Source: Acaryochloris thomasi RCC1774 (GTDB lineage Bacteria > Cyanobacteriota > Cyanobacteriia > Thermosynechococcales > Thermosynechococcaceae). From it: a stretch of 32,000 bases of DNA. The notes beneath the pieces were generated by a model that saw nothing but the letters and a program-made list of their open reading frames with translations, did not search any database and was not told the DNA's origin. The stretch covers positions 300,001 through 332,000 of the forward strand of contig NZ_PQWO01000001.1 in the NCBI RefSeq assembly GCF_003231495.1, in the 5' to 3' direction. The position numbers and the translations under genes are program-made. Position 1 is the stretch's first letter; the number at the start of each line of letters is the position of its first letter. This document shows positions 10,924 to 29,412 of this stretch, one piece after another.

Positions 10924-11468
10924 AGTCGCGCTTGCCAGCAATAGAGACAGTCAATCAGTGACTCGATTTTCTCATGCAGTGGCTTTCCTTATCTTGCTTG
11001 CACGTCCTGAAAGCCAGTGACAGTAGACTTATTCTAATGACCCACGGCGTATATGTTAATCTTGCCCATTACGGCAAAGCAGTCTACCTAATTCTTGTTG
11101 TCCTCTATTATATTCTTGCGAAATCGCTCCACACGTATTCCGTCATACAGCCACCGAGAGAGACGTGAAGCGCAGCATCATTTTGTTTTTAAAGCTGTAA
11201 TCCCAGCTATACACCCACAATTAGATCAAATCGCGGACCTATAGCCATCAGAAAGTTATATTCAGATTTTATCTCTGTCTTAGAGGGTAAAACTGCAGAA
11301 AACGCAAATATGAGATAGCTATCGGTGATTAGCGACCCTAGCCGATCGATAGGGAAACAAGCCTTGCGATCGCTCAGCAAACATCCTGCGTTTGCGGTAG
11401 TCGTGTTTTCTAGAGCTATCTCTGACGATGGTAGAAGTAATACCCCCAACCCCGATGGGAATATCGAC

Positions 11469-12178: not shown

Positions 12179-13309
12179 CTACCGACGGAGAATCGCGGCT
12201 ATAGGAACGTTATCAAAAGGCATCTGCTCCAAAATATGAACCTGCCCGCCCCGCAGCCAGGTCTGTACTGCGGCAAAATTTAATAGATCGTCTAGCTCCT
12301 CGACCCTACTTTTTTGCAACTCAATCTTGTCAGTCTGTGGATTGAAGCGACCCCAGATCTGTCTCCCAGCAGCCACGAATAAAGTCTCAACTTGGCCATT
12401 GTGAGCCGCTCGAACAATACCCTGTAAATCGGTATGGGTTTGCTCTGTTGAAGATAAATATCGGTATTGTGAGATCGCCTGTTGCTTCACGTGCTGAAAA
12501 TGGGGGGCAACCGTCTGCCAAGCGTACTGATGCAGTGATTCAGAACTGAGCAATTCTTGATTATCTGCTCTGCATGTATGAAGTATAGACGTACAGGGAT
12601 TAGCACGCTGATAAATAGAACACAGAGCTTCCGTCCCCATCAAGAGCAAAGGTATCTGCGGATCATGCCGCCAAGACATCACTCGCTCATTGATCTTTTG
12701 AAAGCGGCGAAAAATTTCACTATCTGCGCGGTCAAGCCCTTGTCTCTGATCAACAGGAGAATGGCTGATGGTACTGCGATCGTAACGTTGAAGTTGTTCT
12801 TCAAAATTGTCGCGGAGTAAGACTTTCGCAAGACTTTGAGGCACGTCCGCTAGATTAAGGGGTTCAATGGAGTGTTGAGTTGCCCGAAAGAGTCGGGGCT
12901 GATTTTGGTGCACCGCCAGAATTAAAAATTTCGTGTTCTCCGTGAGCAGTGGCAGCAAAGGTTTGAGATGAAAGCGATGGGTAACAATGGCCAAGGTTCG
13001 GAAACGGATGGGCAGTGAGTAGGTGCGAAATATCTCTGGACTACAGAAAATTGCCAGCCCCTGCCGCTGCTGCCCAAAGTCATGCTGCTCAATCAGTGCC
13101 TTCAATGATCTAAGCAGCGCCACGGCATCGAATGGGAACCATTTTCCGGTTGCGAGCTGGACCTGAACCTCGTTGAGTAGACGCCTCAAACGGATAGGAG
13201 CAGAGGGAGCCTGCTGTTCTGTCAAGTCAGTGGGCATATAGATCGAGACCCGGGGTCTACCCGTTGACTCCATCAATTCCTTTAGTTGGGTCTCATGTAG
13301 AAATGTCAT
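12179..13309 (-). CDS. Hypothetical protein, candidate bacterial eRF1/Pelota-like (baeRF-type) domain protein
   Basis: The ORF track start at 13330 is a GTG, and the first ATG is at 13309 (MTFLHETQLKELMESTGRPRVSIYMPT...). The N-terminal VSIYMPT...IRLRRLL, the mid-protein HRFHLKPLLPLL and the C-terminal LRGGQVHILEQMPFDNVPIAAILRR resemble baeRF families as I recall them. The C-terminal part matches the eRF1/Pelota domain-3 ending GG..AILR[YF]. This is recall only and no HMM search was run. Confidence 0.65.
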   Translation of the reverse strand: MTFLHETQLKELMESTGRPRVSIYMPTDLTEQQAPSAPIRLRRLLNEVQVQLATGKWFPFDAVALLRSLKALIEQHDFGQQRQGLAIFCSPEIFRTYSLPIRFRTLAIVTHRFHLKPLLPLLTENTKFLILAVHQNQPRLFRATQHSIEPLNLADVPQSLAKVLLRDNFEEQLQRYDRSTISHSPVDQRQGLDRADSEIFRRFQKINERVMSWRHDPQIPLLLMGTEALCSIYQRANPCTSILHTCRADNQELLSSESLHQYAWQTVAPHFQHVKQQAISQYRYLSSTEQTHTDLQGIVRAAHNGQVETLFVAAGRQIWGRFNPQTDKIELQKSRVEELDDLLNFAAVQTWLRGGQVHILEQMPFDNVPIAAILRR

Positions 13310-13708
13310 TGATGTAGATTGCCACGGCACTCACGCAAGTCATACTGGCACCGGGGACCGACTCTGCAATACTCTCTGAAGCTGCCGCAGCGCTGTAAAC
13401 CTCAAAATCCTGCCAACTAGAGATCCATAGCCTCACCGAGTTGCCGAAGCTGTGAATGTATCTATATACAATCTAGGAGAACAATGCCTGAGCAAGCATC
13501 CACCATTGGTTATAAATAGAACTAATACTTAGAATCCATATTTCTTATGTTTCTGAGCAAGCGGGCTTTCGAGCAGCTCAGCTCGCTTCTCGATTAATCA
13601 CCATAACTTTTGCGCATGTTTACCAGCACCGCCTGCTTTACAAAGTTATGGACCGTATACTGTGACTACCGTGCCCTGTCGATGTAAGTCGAGCGAAAGA
13701 ATGCCAGC

Positions 13709-16300
13709 ATGACCGATTCCCTACTCAGCAGTAGAATTTTAATCGTGGATGATTCGGAGAGTGATCGGGCGATTTGTCGTCGGTACTTAAAAGCGTCGAG
13801 AACTTGGAATTACGACATCTTGGAATGTGAGTTAGGAGCCGAGGCTCTGGCACTCTGCAAGCAAGAGCAGCCTGATATCGTACTGCTCGACTACCGATTG
13901 CCGGACACCAATGGCCTAAAACTTCTGCAAGATCTGATCGTACAACTAGAGATACCGCCCATTGTGATTGTGCTCACCAGCCAAGAGGATGAAGAAATTG
14001 CTGTAGCAGTCATAAAAAATGGTGCCAAGGATTACCTCATCAAAGGGCAGCTCACGCCAGAAAAACTAGAAAGGTCCATTGCCCGTGCCCTAGCGGAGCA
14101 AACCCTGCAGTCACAGATTCAGCGCCAGCGGCAGCAAAACGCGCTGTTTGCCGATCTGGCCTCGGGTATCAATCGTGCGGTTGAACTCTCACAAATATTG
14201 CAGGCTGCGGTGGATGGCGTTCGTCGATTGCTGAGGTGCGATCGCACCCTTATTTACCAGTTCGAACCCGACATGAGCGGGACCACAGTAGCTGAGTCAG
14301 TCTTACCAGAATGGAGCGCAACCCTCGGCTACCAGCTAGAGGACAATTGCTTCCAGGGGGCCCAAAGCTATCAAGCTGAGAAATATCTGCAGGGCCATAA
14401 GATGGCGATCGCAAACATTGCCGAGAGCCATCTGTCTGTCTGTCATATCAAGATGCTGCAGCGGTTTCAGGTCAAGGCCAGTCTTGTGGTTCCGATTATC
14501 GATACAGCAAACGTAACGGGTACGACCAGGCTGTGGGGATTGCTGATTGCTCACCATTGCCAGACGATACACAACTGGACTGCGGAAGAACTGAATTTGT
14601 TGGGTGAAATCTCGGTGCAGGTTGCGATCGCAACACAGCAGGCCGCACTGACCACAAGCTTGAAGATCAGCCTGGAAAAACAGCAAAAGACAGAACAAGC
14701 GCTGCAGCAAAATCAGACCCAACTGCAGGCGATCTTAGATAACGCCCCGTCGGTGATTTACCTCAAGGAACCGGAAGGGCGTCTTCAGCTCATCAATCAG
14801 GAATTTCAAACGATCTTTGGTCTCTCGGAAGCAGAGGCAATTGGCAAAACCGATGCTGAGCTATTTCCTCCAGAGGTCGCTGCTGAATTCGGGATCAATG
14901 ATCGCCAGGTTGTTGCTTCGGGCCAGCCCCTATTTACAGAAGAGGTTGTTCGGCAGACCGATGATGAATGGCATACCTACCTATCGATTAAGTTTCCGAT
15001 TTTCGACGCTGAGGGGCAGGTCGTTCAGATCGGCGGCATTGCCACCGATATCACTGAGCGCAAGCAAATGGAGCAGGCACTCAGAACCTATCAGGAACGG
15101 ATGCACCGCTTTACGGAGTCCGATTTGATCGGCATTCTTTTTGGCGATACCAAGGGGGGAATTCAGGAGGCCAACGACGAGTTTTTGCGCATTGTCGGCT
15201 ACAGTCGCCAGGAACTCAAAAACAATCAGGTCCGCTGGGATGACCTGACGCCACCGGAGTACCTGCCGCTGGACCAGGCTAGGATCGCCGAAGCGCAGAA
15301 ACGGGGAAGCTGTACACCTTACGAGAAAGAATATGTTCGCAAAGACGGCAGCCGCATTCCGGTCTTGATTGGCTATATCTTGATGGGAGAGACTCGTACC
15401 CAGTCTGCGGCTTTTATTCTCGACATTACCGAGCGCAAACGAGCCGAACGAGAGCTGCAGACCATTAATACAGAACTAGAGCAACGGGTCGAAGATCGGA
15501 CGGCGGAGCTGACGGCATCAAATGCAGACCTGAAAGCAGAAGTGGTGGAACGACTGGGCAGTGAGCGTCAACTGAGGCAGACCGCTGAACAGCTGAGCAC
15601 CTCTAATCGAGCACTACAGGACTTCGCTTATGTGGCCTCCCATGATCTGCAGGAGCCACTGCGTAAAATTCAGGCTTTTGGCGATCGCCTCACAGTGAAG
15701 TATGCTCCACAACTTGGGGACCAAGGACGGGACTACCTGCGGCGGATGCAGAGTGCGGCCCAGCGGATGCAGATCTTAATCGATGATTTGCTCGCTTACT
15801 CCCGCATTAGCACCCGGGTTCAGCCCTTCGAAGCCGTCAATCTTGACGACATTGTGCGCGGCGTGCTCTCGGATCTTGAAGCCCGCCTCGAAAAAACGCA
15901 GGGTCAGGTTCAGGTCAACGCGCTGCCCACACTTGAAGCGGATCCAGTGCAGATGCGACAACTGTTCCAAAATTTGATTGGTAATGCCCTCAAATTCCAT
16001 CAGCCAGGCATCCCGCCTCAGATCGTCGTTTCTCAGTCTGCTGCTGCAGAGCAAGAAGTAGAGCTGCAGATTCAAGACAACGGTATTGGGTTCAACACCA
16101 AATATCTAGACCGCATCTTTACCCCCTTTGAGCGTCTCCACAGTCGGTCTGCTTACGAGGGCACCGGCATGGGACTGGCGATCTGTCGTAAAATCGTTGA
16201 GCGCCATGGCGGTCAGCTCACTGCGATCAGCGCTGATGGCGAAGGTGCAACGTTCATCATTACCCTGCCCTATACCCAGCCCCACGATCATGAGCAGTAG
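13709..16300 (+). CDS. Hybrid sensor histidine kinase: REC, GAF (candidate DXCF-class cyanobacteriochrome), PAS, PAS, HisKA, HATPase_c
   Basis: 863 aa. REC: ILIVDDSESD...VLLDYRLPDTNG...VLTSQ...DYLIKG. GAF: DRTLIYQF...VAESV...LEDNCF...YLQGHKMAIANI...SVCHIKMLQRFQVKASLVVPI...LWGLLIAHHC. Two PAS domains each end in DITERK. The H-box is FAYVASHDLQEPLRKI (His codon 15641-15643). HATPase motifs: DNGIGF and GTGMGLAICRKIVERHGG. Confidence 0.95.
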   Translation: MTDSLLSSRILIVDDSESDRAICRRYLKASRTWNYDILECELGAEALALCKQEQPDIVLLDYRLPDTNGLKLLQDLIVQLEIPPIVIVLTSQEDEEIAVAVIKNGAKDYLIKGQLTPEKLERSIARALAEQTLQSQIQRQRQQNALFADLASGINRAVELSQILQAAVDGVRRLLRCDRTLIYQFEPDMSGTTVAESVLPEWSATLGYQLEDNCFQGAQSYQAEKYLQGHKMAIANIAESHLSVCHIKMLQRFQVKASLVVPIIDTANVTGTTRLWGLLIAHHCQTIHNWTAEELNLLGEISVQVAIATQQAALTTSLKISLEKQQKTEQALQQNQTQLQAILDNAPSVIYLKEPEGRLQLINQEFQTIFGLSEAEAIGKTDAELFPPEVAAEFGINDRQVVASGQPLFTEEVVRQTDDEWHTYLSIKFPIFDAEGQVVQIGGIATDITERKQMEQALRTYQERMHRFTESDLIGILFGDTKGGIQEANDEFLRIVGYSRQELKNNQVRWDDLTPPEYLPLDQARIAEAQKRGSCTPYEKEYVRKDGSRIPVLIGYILMGETRTQSAAFILDITERKRAERELQTINTELEQRVEDRTAELTASNADLKAEVVERLGSERQLRQTAEQLSTSNRALQDFAYVASHDLQEPLRKIQAFGDRLTVKYAPQLGDQGRDYLRRMQSAAQRMQILIDDLLAYSRISTRVQPFEAVNLDDIVRGVLSDLEARLEKTQGQVQVNALPTLEADPVQMRQLFQNLIGNALKFHQPGIPPQIVVSQSAAAEQEVELQIQDNGIGFNTKYLDRIFTPFERLHSRSAYEGTGMGLAICRKIVERHGGQLTAISADGEGATFIITLPYTQPHDHEQ
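14185..14650 (+). other. GAF domain carrying both cyanobacteriochrome cysteine motifs: DXCF (DNCF, Cys214, codon 14348-14350) and the canonical CH (Cys245-His246, 14441-14446)
   Basis: DNCF is encoded at 14342-14353 and VCH at 14438-14446. The two Cys are 31 residues apart. The surrounding context, [S]VCH...L..FQVKA.LVVPI followed by WGLL.AHHC, matches bilin-binding CBCR GAFs. Confidence 0.65.
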
Positions 16301-16751
16301 TCCACAAAGCCAATCTGTTCCCATTCTGATGGCAGAGGATGACGAGGACGATCGCCTCCTCACCCAAGAAGCATTCGTTGAAAGCAGTCTAATCAACCCG
16401 CTACACTTCGTTGAAGATGGCGAAGAACTTCTTGACTACCTGCACCAGCGAGGCCGCTATACCGACGCGACCCAATCTCCGCGTCCGGGGCTGATCTTGT
16501 TAGACTTAAACATGCCCAAGAAAGATGGTCGTGAGGCGCTAATCGAGATCAAGGCAGATAAGAGTTTGCGACACATCCCGGTGGTGGTAATGACCACTTC
16601 GAAAGCAGAAGAGGACGTAGTGCGCTCCTATTCGTTGGGCGTGAGTTCATTCATCATCAAGCCGATCACTTTTGAGCAACTTGTTGAAGTGATTCAGGGG
16701 CTGGGTCGCTACTGGTTTGAGATTGTAACCCTACCGTCGGGAGAAAGCTGA
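16290..16751 (+). CDS. Single-domain response regulator (CheY-like, phytochrome-associated Rcp1-like family)
   Basis: The ORF track gives 16128..16751. The real start is probably ATG 16290 (MSSSPQSQSVPILMAEDDEDD), which overlaps the upstream kinase stop (16298-16300) by 11 nt. The segment PRPGLILLDLNMPKKDGREALIEIK...IPVVVMTTS...SFIIKP...YWFEIVTLP closely resembles Rcp1-type regulators. Confidence 0.9.
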   Translation: MSSSPQSQSVPILMAEDDEDDRLLTQEAFVESSLINPLHFVEDGEELLDYLHQRGRYTDATQSPRPGLILLDLNMPKKDGREALIEIKADKSLRHIPVVVMTTSKAEEDVVRSYSLGVSSFIIKPITFEQLVEVIQGLGRYWFEIVTLPSGES

Positions 16752-16755
16752 CAAT

Positions 16756-17970
16756 ATGGTGGATCAGGCTATTCAGGTACTGCTGGTTGAAGATGACGAA
16801 GATGATTATTTGTTAATTCGTGATTTGCTCTCTGAAGTGCCAGAACAGCGGTTCCAGCTTGACTGGGTAAAGACATTTTCCGAGGCCGCCGATCAGATTC
16901 AGCGACAGCCCTACAGCGTTTATCTGGTGGACTATCGGCTGGGTGAACAAAACGGCCTGGAACTGATGGCGTTGGTCAATCAGCAGGATGCTCCGGCCCC
17001 GGAGATTATTCTCAGCGGTCAGGGCGATCGCAACTTAGATATTACCGCTCTCAAATCTGGCGCTGCCGACTACTTAGATAAAGCAGACCTACAGGCATCA
17101 CTGCTAGAGCATTACATTCGAGCCTCCATTGAACGGAATCGCGCTCAACTGGCGCTGCAGGAGAGCGAAAAAAGATATCGGGACCTCTATCAGCAGGAGA
17201 AATTACTGCGCAGTGAGCTTGCACGAGCCAACACGGAGCTAAAGGATTTTGCCCATACGGCCTCCCATGATTTGCAGGAACCCCTGCGGGCGGTCTCTGG
17301 ACATATTTCACTCCTGCAGGACAAGCTGTTCGACGATCGCTCTGTTTTGACGCAGGATGCTGAGGTTCAAGAGTATTTCGGCTTCATCGCTGCCGGGACG
17401 CGGCGGATGCAGACGCTGGTTCACGATCTGCTGGTCTATTCTCGGGTCGGGACGCGGGATCTGGTGCTCAAAGACGTAGACTGTGGCGAAAGCGTGGAAG
17501 ATGCGATCGCAAACCTCCACATCGCCATTACTGAAGCTAAAGCCGAGATTATTTACGATGATTTGCCTCATTTGCGGGCCGACGCCACTCAGATGATGCA
17601 GTTGTTTCAAAATCTAATCAGCAACGCCATCAAGTTTCGGCATCCTGACACCCCACCCCACATCACAATTCAGGCAGACCCCATTCCGGCCGCGCAGTGG
17701 CGCTTTAGCATCACCGATAACGGCATTGGCATTGACCTTGAAGAGTGCGATCGCATCTTTAAAATTTTTAAGCGGCTACATACGCAGCAAGAGTTCGCCG
17801 GTACCGGCATGGGTCTGACCGTCTGCGAAAAAATCGTAGATCGACACGGCGGCAAAATTTGGGCCGAGTCTCAGCCAGGGGCAGGAGCGACCTTTTGGTT
17901 CATTTTGCCGCAGAATCCCCCAGAGCGAATTGACCCCCCGTTGCCCAACCCACCGACGTTAGATGCGTGA
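16756..17970 (+). CDS. REC-HisKA-HATPase_c hybrid histidine kinase (the receiver is the only input domain)
   Basis: 404 aa, starting 4 nt after the preceding stop. REC: VLLVEDDEDD...VYLVDYRLGEQNG...ILSGQ...DYLDK. A coiled-coil linker follows. H-box: FAHTASHDLQEPLRAV. HATPase: TDNGIGI...GTGMGLTVCEKIVDRHGG. Confidence 0.95.
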   Translation: MVDQAIQVLLVEDDEDDYLLIRDLLSEVPEQRFQLDWVKTFSEAADQIQRQPYSVYLVDYRLGEQNGLELMALVNQQDAPAPEIILSGQGDRNLDITALKSGAADYLDKADLQASLLEHYIRASIERNRAQLALQESEKRYRDLYQQEKLLRSELARANTELKDFAHTASHDLQEPLRAVSGHISLLQDKLFDDRSVLTQDAEVQEYFGFIAAGTRRMQTLVHDLLVYSRVGTRDLVLKDVDCGESVEDAIANLHIAITEAKAEIIYDDLPHLRADATQMMQLFQNLISNAIKFRHPDTPPHITIQADPIPAAQWRFSITDNGIGIDLEECDRIFKIFKRLHTQQEFAGTGMGLTVCEKIVDRHGGKIWAESQPGAGATFWFILPQNPPERIDPPLPNPPTLDA

Positions 17971-18204
17971 TGCCTTCGGAGCACGAGTTGTGCAAGAGAT
18001 CCGCTTTTAATAGGAGGTCTCCTTTGTTAAAGCCACAGCAACTGGCGTTAGCCCAATTGCTGCAAAAAGGTGTTTGTGAGTTGCGCTCCTTTTGAGGCAT
18101 GATCCGCTTCGACAACCTAACCAGCCGGAGAAATCCTGCAAACTTCTAGCGATCGCTGGGCAATAGGCAGGACAGCCTGCACAGAATTTTATCGGGGACG
18201 AACT

Positions 18205-18233
18205 TTGACGCAAGTATATATCTCTAATACTAT
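18205..18233 (+). promoter_or_regulatory. Candidate sigma-70-type promoter (TTGACG, 17-nt spacer, TACTAT) upstream of the third kinase gene
   Basis: TTGACG at 18205-18210 and TACTAT at 18228-18233, with an exact 17-nt spacer. It lies in the 338-nt gap that interrupts the kinase cluster, about 75 nt upstream of ATG 18309. This is a motif match only. Confidence 0.3.
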
Positions 18234-18308
18234 CTTTACAATTCTGTAATATTGTTAAGATGGGCTTGATATGCCTGTCGAAAACGATCGCATCCGAGTG
18301 ATGAATCT

Positions 18309-19424
18309 ATGCCAGCCCTCTCAATCTTGGTCGTTGAAGACAGTCCTAGCGACACAAATCTACTGCGCCAAATTTTTATCCGCACAGGGCGGGTAGACTG
18401 GTCCCTGACGACGGCAGAACGTCTTAGCGAAGGTCTTGAAATTGCTCAGCAGTCTTACTTTGACGTCGTCTTGCTCGATCTTTCTCTGCCTGACTCTGAG
18501 GGACTAGAGACGGTCAGTACCTTTGTCGAGAGGGTACCCAAGCTCCCCATCGTGGTGCTCACCATTGCCGATGACGAACAACTGGCGCTCGATGCCATCC
18601 ACCAAGGCGCACAGGATTATCTGGTTAAAGGCGAAATTACCTCAGCGCTTCTGGTGCGGGCCATCCAGCACGGTATTGAGCGAGAACGACTGGTGCGCCA
18701 ACTACGGGAAGCCAACGCAGAACTGGCTTCGTTTAGCTACTCAGTGGCCCACGACTTGAGATCGCCCCTGCGGGCCATCGAAGGCATCAGTCAGGCGCTC
18801 AAAGAAGACTATGCCGATGTCTTAGACGAGCGGGGGATCGACTACACCGATCGGATTATCGATAGCACCACTCGACTCTCTCGCCTCATTGAAGATTTGT
18901 TGACCTATAGCGGCCTCGGGAAAGCGGAGCTATCGGTGGGTACGGTGGATTTAAATGTTGCGATCGCAGATGCCCTAACGCTAATTGAGACAGACATTGA
19001 GCAGCAGCAAGCCGAGATTAAAGTCGAGCCATCCCTGCCCTCTGTGAAGGGGAACCAACAGACGCTAGTGCAGGTGATCAGCAACCTGCTCTCTAACGCC
19101 ATTAAGTTTGTTCCCAAAGCCACCCAGCCCCATATTTACCTCCACGCAGAGCAAGTCGACTCACCCCCGCAGCGCTCCCAGTCCAGTCGTGATACCTGGG
19201 TCCGACTTTGGATAGAAGACAACGGTATCGGCATCGCCCCTCAACACCAGGAGCGAATTTTTGGCGTATTTGAGCGCCTCCACGGTCAAGAAAGCTATGC
19301 AGGCACCGGCATTGGTCTCGCCATTGTCAAAAAATGTATTGAGCATTTAGGCGGTAGAGCGGCCGTCGAATCCCAGCTCGGTCAGGGCAGTCAGTTTTGG
19401 ATTGAGCTACCAAAATCTCAGTAG
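18309..19424 (+). CDS. REC-HisKA-HATPase_c hybrid histidine kinase
   Basis: 371 aa. REC: ILVVEDSPSD...VVLLDLSLPDSEG...VVLTIADD...DYLVKG. H-box: FSYSVAHDLRSPLRAI. HATPase: EDNGIGI...GTGIGLAIVKKCIEHLGG. Confidence 0.95.
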   Translation: MPALSILVVEDSPSDTNLLRQIFIRTGRVDWSLTTAERLSEGLEIAQQSYFDVVLLDLSLPDSEGLETVSTFVERVPKLPIVVLTIADDEQLALDAIHQGAQDYLVKGEITSALLVRAIQHGIERERLVRQLREANAELASFSYSVAHDLRSPLRAIEGISQALKEDYADVLDERGIDYTDRIIDSTTRLSRLIEDLLTYSGLGKAELSVGTVDLNVAIADALTLIETDIEQQQAEIKVEPSLPSVKGNQQTLVQVISNLLSNAIKFVPKATQPHIYLHAEQVDSPPQRSQSSRDTWVRLWIEDNGIGIAPQHQERIFGVFERLHGQESYAGTGIGLAIVKKCIEHLGGRAAVESQLGQGSQFWIELPKSQ

Positions 19425-19487
19425 AGAAATCCGGCACAAATTAGTCCAGACAACCGCAACGCTCATCCAATACCTCTCTTAACAAAG

Positions 19488-19496
19488 TGTTACAAT
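19488..19496 (+). promoter_or_regulatory. Candidate extended -10 element (TGtTACAAT) upstream of the second single-domain response regulator
   Basis: tgttacaat at 19488-19496, about 105 nt upstream of ATG 19601. I found no convincing -35. This is a motif match only. Confidence 0.2.
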
Positions 19497-19600
19497 CTAG
19501 AAAACATTAGAAACAGCGCTTAGAGGTATCGTCCTCTGCTGTGCGGTGATTAACCAATTACTTGCTCGGTCTTACTCTCTTTCTAGGAATTTAAAGTCTT

Positions 19601-20056
19601 ATGAGTCAGCATCGCCCTACCGTTTTACTGGTCGAAGATGATGCAAATGATGTTCTGCTGCTGCGGCGTGCCCTTGCGAAAGCTCAGCTCGGTTCAGTTG
19701 ATTTAAAGACAGTGAGTGACGGAGATGCGGCGATTGCCTATCTCTCTCAGCAGGCACCTTACAACGATCAGGACAAACACCCGCTGCCCACCCTGCTATT
19801 GCTTGATATTAAGCTGCCCTGCCGTTCAGGGCTAGAGGTGCTTGAATGGATTCGACAGCAGCCTCAGCTCAAGCGTCTGCTGGTGATCATTCTGACAGGG
19901 TCCAAGGAGCAACCCGACCTTGAAAAAGCCTATGATCTGGGCGTAAACTCATACTTAGTGAAGCCTGGCATTTTTGCGGACCTCGTCGACCTAATGAAGA
20001 CCCTCCATAATTACTGGCTCAGTCTCAACGAGCATCCTCAGTTGTCCTTGACTTAA
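19601..20056 (+). CDS. Single-domain response regulator (phytochrome-associated type)
   Basis: 151 aa. The sequence TVLLVEDDANDVLLLRRAL...PLPTLLLLDIKLPCRSGLEVLEWIR...VIILTGS...NSYLVKP...YWLSLN has all phospho-acceptor pocket residues present. Confidence 0.9.
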   Translation: MSQHRPTVLLVEDDANDVLLLRRALAKAQLGSVDLKTVSDGDAAIAYLSQQAPYNDQDKHPLPTLLLLDIKLPCRSGLEVLEWIRQQPQLKRLLVIILTGSKEQPDLEKAYDLGVNSYLVKPGIFADLVDLMKTLHNYWLSLNEHPQLSLT

Positions 20057-20078
20057 TCTCTCTATCTCAGACAGCAGT

Positions 20079-22010
20079 ATGGCCCCAGTGCGGTTGCTTT
20101 TAATTGATGATAGCCCCAACGACCGCCTACTGGCTGTCCGGCAGCTAAAGCAAGAGTTCTCAGAGCTACAGCCATTAGAAGTCTGCGATGCAGAGGGGCT
20201 GACCCAAGCGCTGAACGAAAACCGCTTTGACATCGTGATTACCGACTATCAACTGCGCTGGACCACGGGACTTGACGTTCTCGAAGAAATCAAGCAGCGC
20301 CGTCCAGACTGTCCGGTCGTGATGTTCACCGGGACAGGCTCGGAAGAGATTGCCGTCACCGCCATGAAGGCGGGCCTAGACGACTACGTGGTTAAGTCGC
20401 CCCAGCACTACGTGCGGCTAGCTAAAGCCACTCAGATCGCTTGGGAGCGCACCCAACAGCAGCAGGCCCTCAAGGAGGCTGAAGAGCGTTATCAGCGTTT
20501 ATTTGAAGAAGTCCCCATTGGTTTATATCGACTCACCCGAGAGGGGAAGCTATTAGACGCCAACCGCCGCTTCCTAGAAATACTAGGTTACGAGAGCAAA
20601 GATGAGGTTTTAGCCACAGACGTCGTCAATGATTGCATTGCAACGGCGGCAAGCGGTCTGTGGACGGCTCAACTCGATGTCACAGACGCAACCCAGAGCG
20701 TTTCGACTCATCTCCGTCACCGCAGCGGAGATGAAATTTGGGTTCGCCACTACGTCCGTTTAGTTCGCAATCCGCAGGGGAACACACAGTATTACGAAGG
20801 CGCGATTGAAGATATTACGGCCTACCGTCGTACTGAATTAGAGCGTAATCAGCTTCTGATCAGCGAACGTAAGGCCCGTGCCGAGGCCGAAACGGCAAAC
20901 CGGGTTAAGGACGAATTTTTAGCCACGGTTTCCCATGAGCTACGCACCCCCCTCAATGCCATGCTGGGCTGGGTGCAGCTTTTACGGGGCGGCCAATTGA
21001 GTGAGGAGAAGTCTGCAAAAGCAATCGAGATTATTGAGCGCAATGCGATCGCACAAAATCAGCTAATCGACGACCTGCTGGATGTCTCTCGGATCATTCG
21101 CGGCAAACTCAAGCTGAAAGTGAAGGCTATTCCACTGCGAAACATTGTCAATGCCGCCTTAGATACGGTCCGTCACGCCGTTGAAAATAAGCAGATTCAG
21201 CTAGAAACCGACTTCGCTCCCTCCGTCACCTTAGTCAATGGCGATCAGGAGCGCCTGCAGCAGGTGTTCTGGAACCTACTCACCAATGCGGTGAAGTTCA
21301 CGCCAGAAGGGGGCAAAATTACGATCCGTGTTGAGAGTAAGCCAAATTGTGCTCAGGTTCAGATCGTTGACACTGGCCAAGGCATTGAGCCAGGGCACCT
21401 GCCCTATATGTTTGAACGCTTCCGGCAGGCCGATGAGTCCTCGACACGCCAAAAGGGGGGATTGGGGCTGGGATTAGCAATTGTCCGCCACTTGGTCGAG
21501 CTGCACGGTGGTGTTGTCACAGCAGAGAGTGCTGGAACCGGTCAAGGCTCTACCTTTATGGTTCAGCTACCGCTGTTCGATACCGTTCAGCCCCTAGCCC
21601 AAATTTCTTTGCCGGCCGATCAGTCTCTTCCTTCTTTAAAGAACCTGCAGCTCTTGGTGGTGGAAGACGAAGACGATGCCCGTGAGATGCTGACGCTGTT
21701 GCTAGAGCAATGTGGCGCTCAGATTTCAGCCGTGGGTTCAGTCTCAGCAGCGATGGCGCATTTGGCGCATCACACCCCGCACCTCATTATTTCTGACATC
21801 GCTATGCCGGTCGAAGATGGCTACACGCTGATCCGGCAGTTGCGAGCGGAGGGCAGACAGATAGTTGCAATCGCATTAACGGCCTACGCCAGAGAACAGG
21901 ACAAAACGGCAGCCCTCCAGGCAGGTTTTAATCATCATCTACCTAAGCCTGTGGACCCAAACCAGCTTGTTCAGCTGATCGCCAATCTTCGGCAGGCGGG
22001 AGAGATTTGA
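20079..22010 (+). CDS. Hybrid histidine kinase: REC, PAS, HisKA, HATPase_c, REC
   Basis: 643 aa, starting 22 nt after the upstream response regulator. N-terminal REC: LLLIDDSPND...IVITDYQLRW...MFTGTGS...DYVVKS. The PAS domain ends in EDITAYRR. H-box: FLATVSHELRTPLNAM. HATPase: VDTGQGI...GGLGLGLAIVRHLVELHGG. C-terminal REC: LLVVEDEDDA...LIISDIAMPVEDG...ALTAYA...HLPKP. Confidence 0.95.
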   Translation: MAPVRLLLIDDSPNDRLLAVRQLKQEFSELQPLEVCDAEGLTQALNENRFDIVITDYQLRWTTGLDVLEEIKQRRPDCPVVMFTGTGSEEIAVTAMKAGLDDYVVKSPQHYVRLAKATQIAWERTQQQQALKEAEERYQRLFEEVPIGLYRLTREGKLLDANRRFLEILGYESKDEVLATDVVNDCIATAASGLWTAQLDVTDATQSVSTHLRHRSGDEIWVRHYVRLVRNPQGNTQYYEGAIEDITAYRRTELERNQLLISERKARAEAETANRVKDEFLATVSHELRTPLNAMLGWVQLLRGGQLSEEKSAKAIEIIERNAIAQNQLIDDLLDVSRIIRGKLKLKVKAIPLRNIVNAALDTVRHAVENKQIQLETDFAPSVTLVNGDQERLQQVFWNLLTNAVKFTPEGGKITIRVESKPNCAQVQIVDTGQGIEPGHLPYMFERFRQADESSTRQKGGLGLGLAIVRHLVELHGGVVTAESAGTGQGSTFMVQLPLFDTVQPLAQISLPADQSLPSLKNLQLLVVEDEDDAREMLTLLLEQCGAQISAVGSVSAAMAHLAHHTPHLIISDIAMPVEDGYTLIRQLRAEGRQIVAIALTAYAREQDKTAALQAGFNHHLPKPVDPNQLVQLIANLRQAGEI

Positions 22011-22034: not shown

Positions 22035-23009
22035 CTAGCTCACTAAGTACGCCTGCAAATCTGATCGATGGTTTTTGCGCAGATAGGTGATCGCCTGACG
22101 CTGAAGCTGACGGACTCGCTCACGGCTAATATCAAGCTGATCACCGATAGCGGCGAGGGTCATGGGGGGTGTTCCGCCGAGCCCAAACCGCATCTCTAAA
22201 ACAGCTTGAGCGCGGGGCGTTAATTTTTCCATTGCCGTCTGCATGTCCCGCGAAAGTGAGGCTTTGCTCACGTAATCGTCGGGAGAGTCTCCCTCATCTT
22301 CAAGCAGTTCAATTAAATCGGTATTCTGCTCGGTGCCGACGCGCATGTCTAAAGATAGGGTCGGTCGAGCAACCTTTAGAAACTTACGGACTTTAGCCGG
22401 TTCCAGATCGAGTGCGGTGGCGACTTCTTCTGTCGTAGCCTTGCGACCCAGGCTTTGGGTCAGATTGCGCTGCGTTTTCTTGATCTTGTTGAGCTTCTCA
22501 ACGATGTGAATCGGTAAACGGATTGTGCGGGCCTGCTGGGCGATCGCCCGGGTCATGGCCTGCCGAATCCACCAGTAGGCATAGGTTGAGAACCGATAAC
22601 CCTGCATGGGGTCAAACTTCTCAACGCCTCGGTGCAGACCTACACTGCCTTCTTGAACCAGGTCCATCATGTCTAGATTGCGATTGAGATACTTCTTGGC
22701 AATGGAAACCACTAGACGTAGGTTCGCCCTGACCATTTTTTCCCTGGCCCGCTGCCCTTGCTTCATGATCTGCGTGAGTTCTGCTTCTTCGAGGTCCACA
22801 GCTTTTGCCCATGCGGCATGCGTCACCGGCCCCTCTGCCTCTAGCTCCTCTTTCTTAGCCAACACAGACATCATTTGCTGGACCTGCTTGCCGTAGATAA
22901 TTTCTTGATCGTGCGTCAAAAGCGGAACTCGGCCAATCTCGCGTAAATAAACGCGTACAGAGTCCGTTGAAGCTTTTGATGATCTTTGGCTGAGATTAGT
23001 CTTAGGCAT
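22035..23009 (-). CDS. RpoD/SigA-family RNA polymerase sigma factor, group-2 type
   Basis: 324 aa. Region 1.2: DSVRVYLREIGRVPLLTHDQEI. Region 2: ANLRLVVSIAKKY...DLVQEGSVGLHRGVEKFDPMQGYRFSTYAYWWIRQAMTRAI..QARTIRLPIHIVEKLNKIKK. Region 4: LTPRAQAVLEMRFGL...TLAAIGDQLDISRERVRQLQRQAI. It has no long region 1.1, which fits a group-2 sigma. Confidence 0.95.
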   Translation of the reverse strand: MPKTNLSQRSSKASTDSVRVYLREIGRVPLLTHDQEIIYGKQVQQMMSVLAKKEELEAEGPVTHAAWAKAVDLEEAELTQIMKQGQRAREKMVRANLRLVVSIAKKYLNRNLDMMDLVQEGSVGLHRGVEKFDPMQGYRFSTYAYWWIRQAMTRAIAQQARTIRLPIHIVEKLNKIKKTQRNLTQSLGRKATTEEVATALDLEPAKVRKFLKVARPTLSLDMRVGTEQNTDLIELLEDEGDSPDDYVSKASLSRDMQTAMEKLTPRAQAVLEMRFGLGGTPPMTLAAIGDQLDISRERVRQLQRQAITYLRKNHRSDLQAYLVS

Positions 23010-23081: not shown

Positions 23082-24230
23082 TTAGATGGTCATCGGTGAA
23101 TCGATGTATACCATCGGCTCTGGCATGGTGAAGCGCAGATTGTAGGTCATCAGGCGTTTTGCCACTTCCTCATTCGCTAAATCGAGCAACAGCTTCCGCA
23201 AGCTCAGCGAGTCTTCACTCGAACCCATAATGAAGAAATTTACCCTAGCTCGGGTTCCAGGCCGGTCTTCTAAAGGGACAAAGCGAACGCGGGTACTGGC
23301 TTTATCGATACCCCCAAAGCCATCAACACTTTCTAGAATGGTCTGCTGAACCAAAGCCTCTTCCGCCTGTTCTAACGACTGCGAAAAATCAAGAAACAGC
23401 ATCGCCATTACCTTTTTGCCCCGTGTGATATTCTCAATCGCCTTACTGGCCATCACAGAGTTCGGCACGATGTAAACCGTGTTTCTGGCAACGGTGCGAA
23501 TCTTGGTAGAGCGAATGCCAATTGACTCAATGCGCCCATAAACATCATCGTTGTGGGGGTTGAAGTTTACGCGCACGTATTCTCCAGGTAGGTAGGGACG
23601 GTCCAGGTAAAGTTCGATGGTGCCGACAAGCTGCTCTAAGCCCTGTTTCGCGGCGAAGGCGACGCCCACGCCGCCGATGCCGATGCTGGCAGAGAGCGCG
23701 ACTAAGTTGAGCTGCAGCCCTCGGGCAAAGATTACGATCGTGAATAGAATAATCACAAAATTGATCAGCGTCTCGAAAATCAGCACCAGTTCATTGACTT
23801 CACCCCCCAGTCGCTGCACCAAATTGACAACGTAGAAACGAATCACGCGCTGGGCCAGCCGGGAGGCCAGCCACCCCATACTGATGGCCAAGGCCAAGTA
23901 CACAAAGAACCCTAAAAACCGATAAAAGTTTTCATACCGCCGCATCAGATTTGAACAGAGGGTGATGAAAGCAAAGGTACCGGTGGTAATCAGTGCATTA
24001 CGAACGGGACGAATGAAATCGCGGTAGATCGGCGGAATCCCGAGGGGCACTAAACGGTTAGCTAATCTCAGCAGTCCCCATAGCAGTCGCGGGAACGCCC
24101 GACCGACAAGGGGCGAAAGGACAGCGCCTAGCAAAAATAGCCCTAACCGGATACTGAGTTCAACGAGAAATTCACGAATGTCGCCGTTGATCTGAAACGT
24201 GTCCAGCAGAATTCTAAGGAGATCGGTCAT
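23082..24230 (-). CDS. Mechanosensitive ion channel (MscS family) protein
   Basis: 382 aa. The N-terminus has multiple hydrophobic helices. The MscS core is IGIGGVGVAFAAKQGLEQLVGTIELYLDRPYLPGEYVRV...GRIESIGIRSTKIRTVARNTVYIVPNSVMASKAIENITR. Confidence 0.9.
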   Translation of the reverse strand: MTDLLRILLDTFQINGDIREFLVELSIRLGLFLLGAVLSPLVGRAFPRLLWGLLRLANRLVPLGIPPIYRDFIRPVRNALITTGTFAFITLCSNLMRRYENFYRFLGFFVYLALAISMGWLASRLAQRVIRFYVVNLVQRLGGEVNELVLIFETLINFVIILFTIVIFARGLQLNLVALSASIGIGGVGVAFAAKQGLEQLVGTIELYLDRPYLPGEYVRVNFNPHNDDVYGRIESIGIRSTKIRTVARNTVYIVPNSVMASKAIENITRGKKVMAMLFLDFSQSLEQAEEALVQQTILESVDGFGGIDKASTRVRFVPLEDRPGTRARVNFFIMGSSEDSLSLRKLLLDLANEEVAKRLMTYNLRFTMPEPMVYIDSPMTI

Positions 24231-25399
24231 GAAGCATCGATGTTCATGGGCTGAGAAATGTCGGTGGTTTTCTCCTCTAACCGGAAGGCAATGCCGTATT
24301 CATGGAGGCGCTCGACGATATTCTCTTGGGCAATCTCTAGCAGGCTTTTACGCAGTTCCATAGAGTTTTCGGCGGCCCCGAGAATGAAGAAAACGATTTG
24401 TGCTTGCGTAATCCCTTTGCTCATAATCACTTCTTCAAAGGTAACCTGCGTGAGGCGATGATCAATGCCTAGAATATCGCGGGTGCTGCCGATGATTAGC
24501 TGCTGCACTAAGGCTCGTTCTTCGTCAGGAATCACCCGAAAAAAGGTTAGCTCCACAATTGAGATCACGCGCCGTGCCCGCGTTAGATTTTCGATGCTGG
24601 TTTGGGCCAGGTTGCTGTTGGGGATAATCACTAAGGTATTTTTGCCGGACAGCCTCACTTTTGTGGAGCGCCAGCCAATCGATTCCACCCGCCCTAAGGT
24701 GCGATCGGGAAGGTGGATATAGTCGCCCACCACGAAGGGCCGGTCGATGTATAAAGTGATGCTCCACAGTATTTGCTCTAGAACTTTTTGGGACGCAAAT
24801 GCGATCGCAACACTTCCCACCCCCAAACTAGCCGTCAAACCAAATACATTAATCCGGTGGGTTTCGGCAAACAAAAAGATCACAATCAGGACAATGACGG
24901 CGTTAGAGATGAACTTTGCCAGCACCAAAAGCTCACTATTGATCTTGGTCTGATCTTCAAGGGCCACCTCTAGCAGGTAGTTATCAAACAGAGTCTTGAA
25001 CAGCGCAAAGCCAAGAAAGATAATGCTAATCGCCACCAGCAGCCCCAACGGGAACTCCAGCAGCGGCAGGCCATAGCGATTGACCACAATTAAGATACTC
25101 AGGTCCGCCACCGTTAGCAGCACCGTCCAGATCACCCAGTCCTGATAGGGCCGCACAACCGTGCGATAGATCTCTTGAAACTCCGCCGAAGAGAACCGGT
25201 CCACCAGCAGGCGAAACACCGTTGGAATTTTGAGGTAGGACAGGCCGACAACCAGAAATAGCGCGATGGCAGCAACCAAACCCAGCAGCACCGTGAGGCC
25301 CGCATCTAGGGTTTGAGAGACGCCAAATACCCGCGTCAATCGCTGAGGCGTTGCTTGGGCAAAGGTCGCAAGAAGGGTCAATAAGGCGTAATCTATCAC
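24227..25399 (-). CDS. Mechanosensitive ion channel (MscS family) protein, tandem paralog of the downstream gene
   Basis: 390 aa with a GTG start at 25399. The core is LGVGSVAIAFASQKVLEQILWSITLYIDRPFVVGDYIHL...GRVESIGWRSTKVRLSGKNTLVIIPNSNLAQTSIENLTR. Its stop overlaps the next ATG (ATGA at 24227-24230). Confidence 0.9.
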   Translation of the reverse strand: MIDYALLTLLATFAQATPQRLTRVFGVSQTLDAGLTVLLGLVAAIALFLVVGLSYLKIPTVFRLLVDRFSSAEFQEIYRTVVRPYQDWVIWTVLLTVADLSILIVVNRYGLPLLEFPLGLLVAISIIFLGFALFKTLFDNYLLEVALEDQTKINSELLVLAKFISNAVIVLIVIFLFAETHRINVFGLTASLGVGSVAIAFASQKVLEQILWSITLYIDRPFVVGDYIHLPDRTLGRVESIGWRSTKVRLSGKNTLVIIPNSNLAQTSIENLTRARRVISIVELTFFRVIPDEERALVQQLIIGSTRDILGIDHRLTQVTFEEVIMSKGITQAQIVFFILGAAENSMELRKSLLEIAQENIVERLHEYGIAFRLEEKTTDISQPMNIDAS

Positions 25400-25674: not shown

Positions 25675-26811
25675 ATGGCCCTTCTTAATCAACAGCTACA
25701 GCGCTGGTTGCCCACCGGACTAAAACAGTTCCTAGATCGTCTAGCGAACAGTGATGAAGCTGCCGAGCAACCAGAGGAAAACTGTGCCGATTTAACACCC
25801 GAGCAAATTGAACAGCTGTCTGAGGCCATTCAATCCCTCCCCAACCACCCCGTCAACCCAGAAGCCATCTACTCAGATATAAAAGCAGCACTAGAGCAAT
25901 GGCAGGCTAATCCCCAATCGTCTAACAATTCATTGGCAATTTTGAGCAGCCCTGGTGTTGCGATCGCAAATATCCTGGCCCATGACCTAGAACAGCAGCT
26001 AGCTGGACACGAGCCGCCCGTCCTTGTTCTAGCAACCGCTGATCGTGCTAGAGAATCCCATCAGATCGAATCTCTGTTAGAGCAGCGTATCCAGCAGACA
26101 GGTGCTGATCAAGATCGATGCATCGTCGTTATCCCTGACCTGAGTCAATGCTTCCTGCGGAGCGTCGATGGACTCTCTAGCCTAGATTTTTTGCAAGAGA
26201 CGCTTTTGCAGAATCCCTGTCGGTTTACGATTATGGGCCTCGATCCGGTTGCTTGGCACTACCTAGGGGTTGTGAGTCACCTTGCAACCTACTGTAGTCA
26301 AGAGCTATCGTTGCCCAAGCTAGAGGCCGATCAACTACAGGATTGGCTGAAGCCAGTGATCGACCAATTTCAGCTCCAGTTCAGCCGTCACTCAGCGCTG
26401 CAGAAGGCGACCAATGACTCCCCTGAGAGCCGCTACTTCAAGGAGCTGGCTGCTCTTTCAAACGGTAATCGCGTCGTAGCAGAGCAGCTCTTCCTCCAGT
26501 CCATTCACTCCGCTAATGATCGTCCTGAAGCATTAGAGCTAGGAGTACCCAAGTTACCGAACCTCCCCTCCCTTCAAGAAAGTGATAACTATCTGCTCTA
26601 CTCCCTACTCTTACATGGCGAGATGACGCTCTCAGCCCTCGCCGATAGTCTGGGGGAGGCCGTCCCCACACTTCGCTACCAAGCACAGGCTTTACAGCAG
26701 TCTGAAGTCATACTGCTGCGTGAAGACCGGCTAAGCATCAACCCTACTTATGACCCCGAACTCCGGCAGAGTTTAGCACTTAATAATTTTGTTATTGATT
26801 CCCGAGATTGA
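25675..26811 (+). CDS. Hypothetical protein: acidic N-terminus, degenerate AAA+/Arch_ATPase-like core and a predicted C-terminal winged helix
   Basis: 378 aa. LAILSSPGVAIANIL aligns to the pattern hhhhG.PG.GKT.h but lacks the G, K and T. CIVVIPDLSQCF looks like a Walker-B strand with Asp but no Glu. LSLPKLEADQLQDWL and LSNGNRVVAEQLF resemble lid-domain motifs. LLYSLLLHGEMTLSALADSLGEAVPTLRYQAQALQQSEVILLREDRLSINP resembles a wHTH. The stop TGA (26809-26811) shares its A with the next ATG. Confidence 0.75.
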   Translation: MALLNQQLQRWLPTGLKQFLDRLANSDEAAEQPEENCADLTPEQIEQLSEAIQSLPNHPVNPEAIYSDIKAALEQWQANPQSSNNSLAILSSPGVAIANILAHDLEQQLAGHEPPVLVLATADRARESHQIESLLEQRIQQTGADQDRCIVVIPDLSQCFLRSVDGLSSLDFLQETLLQNPCRFTIMGLDPVAWHYLGVVSHLATYCSQELSLPKLEADQLQDWLKPVIDQFQLQFSRHSALQKATNDSPESRYFKELAALSNGNRVVAEQLFLQSIHSANDRPEALELGVPKLPNLPSLQESDNYLLYSLLLHGEMTLSALADSLGEAVPTLRYQAQALQQSEVILLREDRLSINPTYDPELRQSLALNNFVIDSRD

Positions 26812-29356: not shown

Positions 29357-29381
29357 ATCAACAAACGCAATGATTGACTGC

Positions 29382-29412
29382 AAAAAGCCCAGGCAACGGT
29401 GCTGCCTGGGCT
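29382..29412 (-). terminator. Rho-independent terminator ending the small-gene (CsbD) operon
   Basis: The minus strand reads agcccaggca-gcaccgt-tgcctgggct followed by ttttt. This is a perfect 10-bp GC-rich stem (29386-29395 paired with 29403-29412), a 7-nt loop and a T5 tract (29382-29386). It sits 32 nt downstream of the CsbD stop. Confidence 0.8.

Follow-up and report, generated by a model that had tools for sequence, protein, structure and literature searches.

The subject of this analysis is a cluster of six two-component genes (g1 to g6) on the forward strand of Acaryochloris thomasi RCC1774, lying in a 32,000-nucleotide (nt) stretch of contig NZ_PQWO01000001.1 (positions 300,001 to 332,000). 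This whole stretch is called the window below, and positions are counted from its first letter. Judged from gene order and sequence identity, the cluster appears to be composed of two conserved modules standing side by side, g1-g4 and g5-g6, and not of one conserved unit. We lean slightly towards the view that the two modules have been assembled into a light-started, branched cascade of histidine kinases controlled by receiver domains. A receiver-gated kinase cascade had been proposed before in a sequence-only reading of the same DNA, and by analogy it is the reading with the strongest backing from experimental precedents, namely from ExsG, LvrB, LhfE and DpxC.

The coordinates and domain compositions of the six genes and of the two larger gaps between them are given in Table 1. 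Open reading frame (ORF) coordinates and Pfam matches agreed with the sequence-only reading in all six architectures, in the total of four kinase cores and seven receivers, and in the lack of any input domain beyond the receiver in g3 (16756-17970) and g4 (18309-19424). The acceptor pockets had been described as intact, and alignment with CheY showed the same: equivalents of D13, D57 and K109 were kept in all seven receivers, position 87 was T in six of them and S in that of g3, and position 12 was D or E. The H, N, G1, F and G2 boxes were legible and complete in all four kinase sequences. A search for overlooked output or HPt domains, which had been suggested as a check, gave no Pfam match to Hpt, HTH, GGDEF or other output families at E<=0.1 in the six cluster proteins, and no HPt domain was found in the other tested ORFs of the window either. 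In g1, the Pfam bounds were REC(10-121), GAF(159-308), PAS(338-453), PAS(475-575), HisKA(636-701) and HATPase(745-856). The program-listed ORF of g2 (16128-16751, TTG start) is too long, the ATG at 16290 being the likely start. Since g2 then overlaps the g1 stop by 11 nt and g3 starts 4 nt past the g2 stop, g1-g3 look translationally coupled.

Table 1. Genes and gaps of the two-component cluster (window positions).
Feature	Position	Strand	Description
g1	13709-16300	+	863 amino acids (aa); predicted dual-input photoreceptor kinase REC-GAF-PAS-PAS-HisKA-HATPase (Pfam), GAF of the DXCF cyanobacteriochrome type
g2	16290-16751	+	REC alone (Pfam); predicted phytochrome response regulator of the Rcp1/RcpA/RcpB/Rpa3017 type; cassette gene c2
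g3	16756-17970	+	REC-HisKA-HATPase (Pfam); predicted Rec-controlled histidine kinase, 62-residue helical linker; c3 ortholog
gap 1	17971-18308	no strand	338 nt, intergenic; occupies the site of c4 in other cassettes
g4	18309-19424	+	REC-HisKA-HATPase (Pfam); second predicted Rec-controlled histidine kinase, 41-residue linker; c5 ortholog
gap 2	19425-19600	no strand	176 nt, intergenic; corresponds to the A/B junction of L003/L089
g5	19601-20056	+	REC alone (Pfam); second predicted Rcp1-type single-domain receiver; module-B b2 ortholog
g6	20079-22010	+	hybrid kinase REC-PAS-HisKA-HATPase-REC (Pfam); module-B b3 ortholog

The first module was recognised by its gene order. A sensor histidine kinase (c1), a single receiver (c2), a receiver-kinase (c3), a second single receiver (c4) and a second receiver-kinase (c5), defined in this analysis as cassette A, were found in this order, amid unrelated surroundings, in Myxosarcina GI1 and five other assemblies. 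In BLAST comparisons g2 was 73-76% identical to c2, and g4 was 49-54% identical to c5, its receiver reaching 54-70% identity to c5 receivers. The orthologs of g3 in cassette A showed 53-61% identity (60-61% to c3 in four genomes). In A. thomasi the cassette is one gene short of the full five on one strand: c4 was absent, and the other four genes were orthologous and in order. The genes g1-g4 would represent a variant of cassette A that has lost c4 at the 338-nt gap. No remnant of c4 was found in this gap by tblastn, and none of its small ORFs was convincing.

The second module, module B, comprises b1 (REC-PAS-HK, where HK is the histidine kinase part), b2 (REC) and b3 (REC-PAS-HK-REC), with b2-b3 as its core pair. 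The g5 protein was 52-57% identical to b2 but only 33-41% identical to c2 and c4, and g6 was 52-54% identical to b3 of loci L088, L089 and L003. The g6/b3 type is widely conserved in cyanobacteria, with more than 100 clusters at about 50-57% identity over the full length. In six of the seven module-B loci b2 lay before b3, and in five of the seven a receiver-first kinase lay directly before b2; elsewhere this kinase was b1, in the window it was g4. In L003 and L089, b1 lay at the junction of A and B together with genes for an alpha/beta hydrolase and a REC-GGDEF protein, these two on the opposite strand. The 338-nt and the 176-nt gaps of the window therefore both coincide with sites of extra genes in related loci, c4 at the one and the hydrolase, REC-GGDEF and b1 genes at the other. 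Synteny thus upheld the expectation that the genes are not chance neighbours; the idea of the six genes as one conserved unit did not stand, because modules A and B each occur alone in other genomes. The hydrolase and REC-GGDEF genes span 12879-15175 (-) in L003 and 4031-6251 (-) in L089. This REC-GGDEF protein is a candidate cyclic di-GMP (c-di-GMP) output for such cascades and is absent from the A. thomasi window.

At the photoreceptor end, the best structural relatives of the g1 GAF domain among PDB sequence matches were RcaE, PPHK (6oap, E 7e-29), NpR6012g4 and TePixJ. The canonical Cys, C245, lies in a C-H motif, was invariant in 20 relatives and aligned with the Cys region of RcaE. A D-x-C-F motif (D212-N-C214-F215), 31 residues before C245, was at least 90% conserved in the 20 relatives. 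The domain thus carries both Cys features of a DXCF cyanobacteriochrome and is predicted to be one; with conserved residues and with cyanobacteriochromes as best PDB matches, the query that had been attached to this assignment has given way to a firmer one. Residues 1-310 of g1 fell into a REC-GAF-HK (PPHK-like) family of cyanobacterial proteins of about 575 aa, which were 48-58% identical to the g1 N-terminus, and residues ~300-860 were 53-64% identical to c1 of cassette A (BLAST). The N-terminus of g1 appears to replace the ETR1-like or PAS sensor ends of other cassettes.

According to 2019 work as cited in PMC8092228 and PMC11480761, PPHK is a kinase with a receiver and a bilin-binding GAF domain that is controlled by phosphorylation and by light. 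The tandem of receiver and bilin GAF is shared with residues 1-310 of g1, 6oap matching both the GAF domain and the receiver region, whereas g1 differs in two inserted PAS domains and in a kinase core of the cassette-A lineage instead of the PPHK family. In a sister genome (bin.17), the order REC-GAF-PAS-HK / REC / REC-HK was found at the same place with the same baeRF gene adjoining. In the window this neighbour is a bacterial eRF1-like gene (baeRF family 3/7) at 12179-13330 (-), divergent from g1 and upstream of it; in the sister genome (locus L170, 438-1668, -) it was called as two ORFs. When residues 1-334 of g1 were used as query, the exact g1 protein was absent among the matches, while g3 and g6 of that genome were found at 100%. 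A 570-aa REC-GAF-HK paralog of A. thomasi (P0250, 54%) was matched instead, and the g1 gene may be annotated differently in the protein collection or be missing from it.

The two single receivers matched phytochrome response regulators. The best PDB matches of g2 were RcpB (1k66, E 1e-35), Rcp1 (1i3c, 3e-34) and 4zyl (E 5e-34), and those of g5 were 5ic5, 4zyl and Rcp1 (3e-23); the solved relatives of both also include RcpA and bacteriophytochrome response regulators. The 4zyl entry we take to be the structure of Rpa3017 (presumably Yang et al. 2015). In the alignment both g2 and g5 showed the alpha2-beta3 insertion of the Rcp family and a C-terminal YW...P tail, and both are predicted to be members of the Rcp1/RcpA/RcpB group. 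As in the Cph1-Rcp1 and CphA/B-RcpA/B systems, each of these Rcp-family receivers follows a kinase with an H-box of the ASHDLQEPLR type. Those systems are two-gene pairs, however, whereas here such pairs are chained via receiver-kinases.

The kinases g3 and g4, which lie between these receivers, gave full-length sequence matches to LvrB (8vc9, E about 2e-17), although at an identity of only about 23%. LvrB was also the top Foldseek match of the AF2 (AlphaFold2) model of g3 (mean pLDDT 81). In this model the last helix of the receiver continues unbroken (114-193, 80 residues) through His171 and is followed by DHp helix 2 and by a confidently modelled CA domain; no domain was seen beyond receiver, DHp and CA. 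The closest solved core for g1, g3 and g4 was the RpBphP2 kinase (8f71), which is of the bacteriophytochrome type. Scores with the NCBIfam LvrB model NF047466 were 83 bits for g3 and 99.5 bits for g4, far below its cut-off of 500 bits. Both proteins appear to belong to the same class as LvrB, but to a different family. Both have the architecture of histidine kinases under Rec control (Rec-HKs) together with a receiver predicted to be phosphorylatable, and the model of g3 also predicts the continuous helical linker from receiver to H-box.

Linker lengths, counted in residues between the lysine of the receiver and the histidine of the H-box, were strictly conserved. Each of the six g3-type orthologs had a linker of 62 residues and each of the six g4-type orthologs one of 41, which differ by 21 residues or exactly three heptads. 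In related receiver-kinases, 100 of 104 linkers fell into two heptad series (41/48/55/62 and 46/53/60), which is the pattern predicted by a coiled-coil signalling helix.

These features also bear on two other explanations of the cluster. In the first, the single receivers and receiver-kinases would form no forward cascade but a sink or phosphatase network that mainly drains or buffers the phosphate of g1 and shapes the kinetics or threshold of a single photoreceptor output to an unlinked regulator. This we consider improbable. The LhfD receiver has been called a sink and is dispensable (PMC6879726), ExsG is switched off by phosphorylation of its receiver (PMC3899027), a phosphatase-active symmetric state has been proposed for LvrB (PMC13269768), and no output domain is present in the cluster. 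All four kinases, however, have complete ATP-binding boxes, the receiver-kinase orthologs are about 50-60% identical over their full length, ExsG, LvrB and LhfE each phosphorylate a downstream partner, and the strict conservation of linker lengths favours regulated kinase output. In the second explanation, the cluster would work as a genuine His-Asp-His-Asp phosphorelay: the DHp domains of g3 and g4 would accept phosphate from a receiver and so stand in for the HPt domain that is missing from the cluster. DHp-like phosphotransferases of this kind exist in Spo0B and ChpT, which have degenerate ATP sites. The g3 and g4 proteins differ from both in that their N, G1, F and G2 boxes are intact and their CA domain is confidently modelled. 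Furthermore, in ExsG no phosphate passed between the kinase His and the receiver of the same protein (PMC3899027) and LvrB autophosphorylates from ATP (PMC13269768), and we regard such a relay as very improbable. Both explanations lose likelihood because the ATP-binding boxes and full-length sequences are conserved.

Within the kinase family, the closest full-length relatives of g4 were P0361 (64%) and P0362 (59%). Its core was 49-56% identical to b1 cores and 45-49% identical to c5 cores, and a chimeric origin of g4 from a c5-type receiver and a b1-type core was considered and rejected. The same pattern was seen in P0361 and P0362, the c5 and b1 cores form sister groups (44-56% identical, against 34-41% to c1 and c3), and many unrelated architectures share 50-59% kinase-core identity. 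The H-box of g6 is of a different type (SHELRTPL), and its core was only about 27-33% identical to the other kinases of the cluster.

Three side observations concern these kinases. Among NCBIfam models LvrA matched g1, g3 and g4 best, with scores far under its cut-off; g4 aligned to LvrA 470-818, which is a receiver with the second kinase core inside LvrA, so that LvrA may contain a fused Rec-HK unit. The c3-type receiver-kinases keep a Cys at His+67, which in g3 is C243 at His+72 (window ~17482-17484) owing to a five-residue loop insertion. This Cys was present in the orthologs of L001, L003, L084, L085, L089 and L086_c1, the last being acidobacterial, while c1, c5 and b1 have Leu at this place in a V-D-x motif. 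It recalls the redox-sensing Cys262 of LhfE (His185+77; PMC6879726), although the offsets differ, His+67/72 against His+77. The insertion itself (KLFDDRSV region, g3 residues ~193-201, window ~17332-17358) lies in the loop between DHp helix 1 and helix 2 and is absent in the other c3 orthologs.

In the cascade towards which we lean, the autokinase of g1 would be set jointly by blue/green-range light, by phosphorylation of its own receiver, as in PPHK, and by signals to its PAS domains. Phosphorylated g1 would pass phosphate in parallel to the receiver of g3 and to g2, which might serve as a sink, as a buffer or as an effector that binds proteins. Phosphorylation of the g3 receiver would re-pack the coiled-coil linker and switch the core, either on (the LvrB case) or off (the ExsG case). 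The next transfer would lead from g3 to the receiver of g4, the accompanying single receiver c4 having been lost here. Since g4 holds the site of the REC-PAS-HK (b1) that lies upstream of the g5/g6 pair elsewhere, it may feed both g5 and the receiver at the N-terminus of g6, the least secure step of the chain. The g6 kinase would finally phosphorylate its own C-terminal receiver, and the last output would be encoded outside the cluster, be it an HPt protein, a REC-output regulator or a partner protein. The sequence-only reading held that output must pass by way of the terminal receiver or the two single-domain regulators; this does not follow, because LvrC is unlinked, LhfA lies adjacent to its cluster and a REC-GGDEF gene lies between the modules in related loci.

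The branching of this cascade is consistent with the sequence of the beta1-alpha1 segment, which is the kinase contact in solved kinase-receiver complexes such as HK853-RR468. The single receiver c2 and the N-terminal receiver of c3 (c3N) share EDDEDD in this segment, with an identity of 0.57 over CheY 11-24 against 0.19 over the rest of the domain, and c4 and c5N share EDSxSD (identity 0.52). A single receiver and that of the following kinase thus have a common contact region, which supports branching.

Several points weigh against this cascade. Its order, sign and branching were deduced from gene order and by analogy, and the sign of the switch is unpredictable from sequence because LvrB is activated and ExsG inhibited. 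The signature shared by c4 and c5N is only modest, 0.52 compared with 0.46 for c4 and c3N. For g5 and the g6 N-terminal receiver the signature failed, b2 being nearer to c3N (0.51) than to b3N (0.35), and the idea that both are substrates of one kinase was rejected. The single receivers may have no output role, because LhfD is dispensable in vivo. Cassette A was found within 10 kb of module B in three of six long-enough loci (the window, and L003 and L089 of two related assemblies, so that two lineages are represented); these six were taken from the seven module-B loci, L087 being a 6-kb contig that was left out of this count. Module B was found without cassette A in Pleurocapsa PCC 7319 (L088) and in L171, L172 and L173, and cassette A without module B within 10 kb in L001, L084 and L085. 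The step from g4 to g5 and g6 may not exist, because the modules occur alone and the two gaps may mark borders between transcription units. Beyond the 32 kb examined there may also be an unlinked c4, b1, HPt protein or output regulator.

The separate occurrence of the modules also speaks for two (or three) independent systems that are merely adjacent, g1-g3, perhaps with g4, representing A, and g5-g6 representing B served by an unlinked kinase. We consider this explanation possible but doubtful. It would agree with the 338-nt and 176-nt gaps that part the blocks, with the different H-box and the low core identity of g6, and with the contact signature of b2 and b3N, which does not fit a shared kinase. 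On the other hand, A and B adjoin both in A. thomasi and in L003/L089, the receiver-first kinase lies directly upstream of b2-b3 in five of seven loci and is g4 here, the cores of c5 and b1 are sister groups, and strand and order are common to all six genes.

The gaps themselves were searched for control elements. The lengths of 338 and 176 nt had been given correctly in the sequence-only reading; of the candidate promoters placed in them, the scan left a single sigma-70-like site at 18205-18233 (+) in the 338-nt gap. The total number of promoter-like sites, 10 compared with 6.6 +/- 2.5 in shuffles, was not above that of shuffled sequence. No terminator-like site was called in either gap, the 176-nt gap had no promoter-like site, and Rfam gave no match to an RNA element anywhere in the window. 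With one promoter-like site, no terminators and a total not above shuffles, a division into three transcription units, as judged from the gaps, is no more than plausible. Repeat elements in the gaps were considered and rejected, the repeats being shared coding motifs and copies of GCGATCGC.

Convergent to the cluster, a gene for a cyanobacterial RpoD-family (group-2-like) sigma factor was found at 22035-23009 (-). It had been raised earlier as a possible target of the cluster, but the neighbourhood is kept only in the window and in its 92%-identical relative L087, and no sigma factor was found beside module B in the five other loci inspected. A functional link between cluster and sigma factor was therefore rejected.

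To place the cluster in a wider frame, 80 loci that surround related kinases, drawn from many phyla with each species represented by one genome, were surveyed with custom receiver and kinase-core profiles. Among the matches listed in this survey there were at least 60 pairs of a kinase and a single receiver, at least 44 of which were followed by a third two-component gene. In 42 of these 44 the third gene began with a receiver, about 23 being receiver-kinases and 13 REC-output proteins. Three-tier chains of the same order also occurred in Acidobacteria (e.g. L013 and L042), and some chains in other phyla ended in a REC-output protein (e.g. L044 and L063). When same-strand two-component clusters around related kinases were counted, again among the matches listed, 13 of 183 had at least three kinase cores and 3 of 183 at least four; a cluster this rich in kinases is uncommon, but not unique. 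Scans of genome contigs and metagenomes for close orthologs gave, among the matches listed, mostly distant kinases and one close locus (L090). A similar alternating chain was seen in a metagenome-assembled genome of the Acidobacteriia (L086, 10001-19475), with the order REC-HK / REC / REC-HK / REC / PilZ / PAS-HK / REC / REC-glycogen-phosphorylase and thus with a receiver fused to a metabolic enzyme at its terminus.

A more far-reaching proposal, which we think rather unlikely, is that cassette A extended by module B forms a three- to four-tier cascade in which kinase activates kinase, a two-component counterpart of the mitogen-activated protein (MAP) kinase cascade. If true, each Rec-HK tier would have an Rcp-type receiver as co-substrate, by which gain or threshold is set, and different sensor ends (ETR1-like, PAS or, in the window, receiver plus cyanobacteriochrome) could be exchanged for one another. 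In A. thomasi the receiver of g1 could close a feedback loop, and two cascades once separate would have become hard-wired as one when c4 and b1 were lost.

Rec-controlled kinases are common, and the cases studied (LvrA/LvrB, BphP1/ExsG and Lhf) are two-tier only. The cassette would offer a compact, all-soluble system for asking why kinases are chained, be it for amplification, delay, sign inversion or signal integration. It could also address the role of Rcp1-type receivers, a question since their discovery, and the way in which an interchangeable sensor, here predicted to be a receiver-gated bilin photoreceptor of the blue/green range, is plugged into a fixed cascade. For this window the gain is modest, and consists of a correct annotation, of evidence for a composite cluster and of testable predictions of phosphotransfer.

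Among the neighbours of the cluster, the gene at 2437-10941 (-) encodes a protein of 2834 aa that has 10 or more GAF domains and a kinase end of the HisKA_3/HATPase_c type. Next on this strand come genes for a NarL/LuxR-type response regulator (REC-GerE, 1781-2419, -) and an AraC-family regulator (691-1596, -). The protein, encoded about 3 kb from the cluster, may be a giant photoreceptor with multiple cyanobacteriochromes and a DNA-binding output of its own. Beyond the sigma factor, four genes of MscS-family mechanosensitive channels lie within 6.3 kb, at 23082-24230 (-), 24227-25399 (-), 26808-27695 (+) and 28004-29383 (-); the first two keep the same order in L087.

Four known systems were compared with the cluster. 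In Rhizobium NT-26, the photoreceptor kinase BphP1 has two phosphorylation targets, AgR and the ExsG receiver; ExsG in turn phosphorylates ExsF and is inhibited when its receiver is phosphorylated (PMC3899027). Cassette genes c1-c4 follow the logic of BphP1-AgR-ExsG-ExsF of Rhizobium NT-26 / Agrobacterium, where genes for a phytochrome-family kinase, a single receiver, a receiver-kinase and a second single receiver lie together and transfer is branched. Unlike ExsG, which is hexameric and has a core of the HWE type, g3 and g4 have classical HisKA/HATPase cores, and in A. thomasi the chain runs on to a further Rec-HK and lacks the second single receiver.

The Leptospira kinase LvrB is activated by LvrA, and phosphorylation of its receiver makes the linker form a coiled coil and releases the CA domain; the partner of LvrB, the unlinked LvrC, is a Rec-anti-sigma factor, and LvrB has been put forward by its authors as the paradigm of 'Rec-HKs' (PMC13269768). 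Receiver, helical linker and DHp-CA, linker lengths quantised in heptads and an upstream kinase encoded next door are common to LvrB and g3/g4. The cluster differs from the Lvr system in having two Rec-HKs in series, Rcp1-type single receivers between them, a predicted bilin photoreceptor as input and no known Rec-anti-sigma partner.

Synthesis of LH4 in Rhodopseudomonas palustris is controlled by the Lhf system of RpBphP2/P3, LhfD, LhfE (REC-HK) and LhfA (REC-HTH), in which the single receiver LhfD (Rpa3017) was called a phosphate sink and was dispensable for the response in vivo, and LhfE (Rpa3018) is redox-gated through Cys262 and passes phosphate to LhfA (PMC6879726). The order of photoreceptor kinase, single receiver and Rec-HK is the same as in the cluster, and the core of g3 and g4 is closest to RpBphP2 (8f71). 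Lhf, however, ends in the adjacent DNA-binding regulator LhfA, and no such gene is present in the cluster.

The dpxABC operon of Fremyella diplosiphon encodes the DXCF cyanobacteriochrome kinase DpxA, the single receiver DpxB and the hybrid kinase DpxC with 0-3 PAS domains; each of the three genes affects pigmentation, and the operon is conserved in many cyanobacterial orders (PMC13492139, PMC4752607). It shares with g1-g3 the order of DXCF kinase, single receiver and receiver-containing kinase. DpxA has 474 aa, a GAF-HK architecture and more than 67% identity among its members (PMC4752607); compared by description, g1 is different in its 863 aa, its N-terminal receiver and its two PAS domains. 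Three more two-component genes follow in the cluster, unlike in dpxABC.

Receiver-gated kinases are a described and named class with solved structures, and the cluster is a longer variant of these systems and no new principle. No description of a conserved cassette with two Rec-HKs in series, each with a single-domain receiver, was found in the literature. What goes beyond the precedents is the second Rec-HK in series, the conserved five-gene cassette, the predicted receiver-gated photoreceptor on top of it and the junction with module B.

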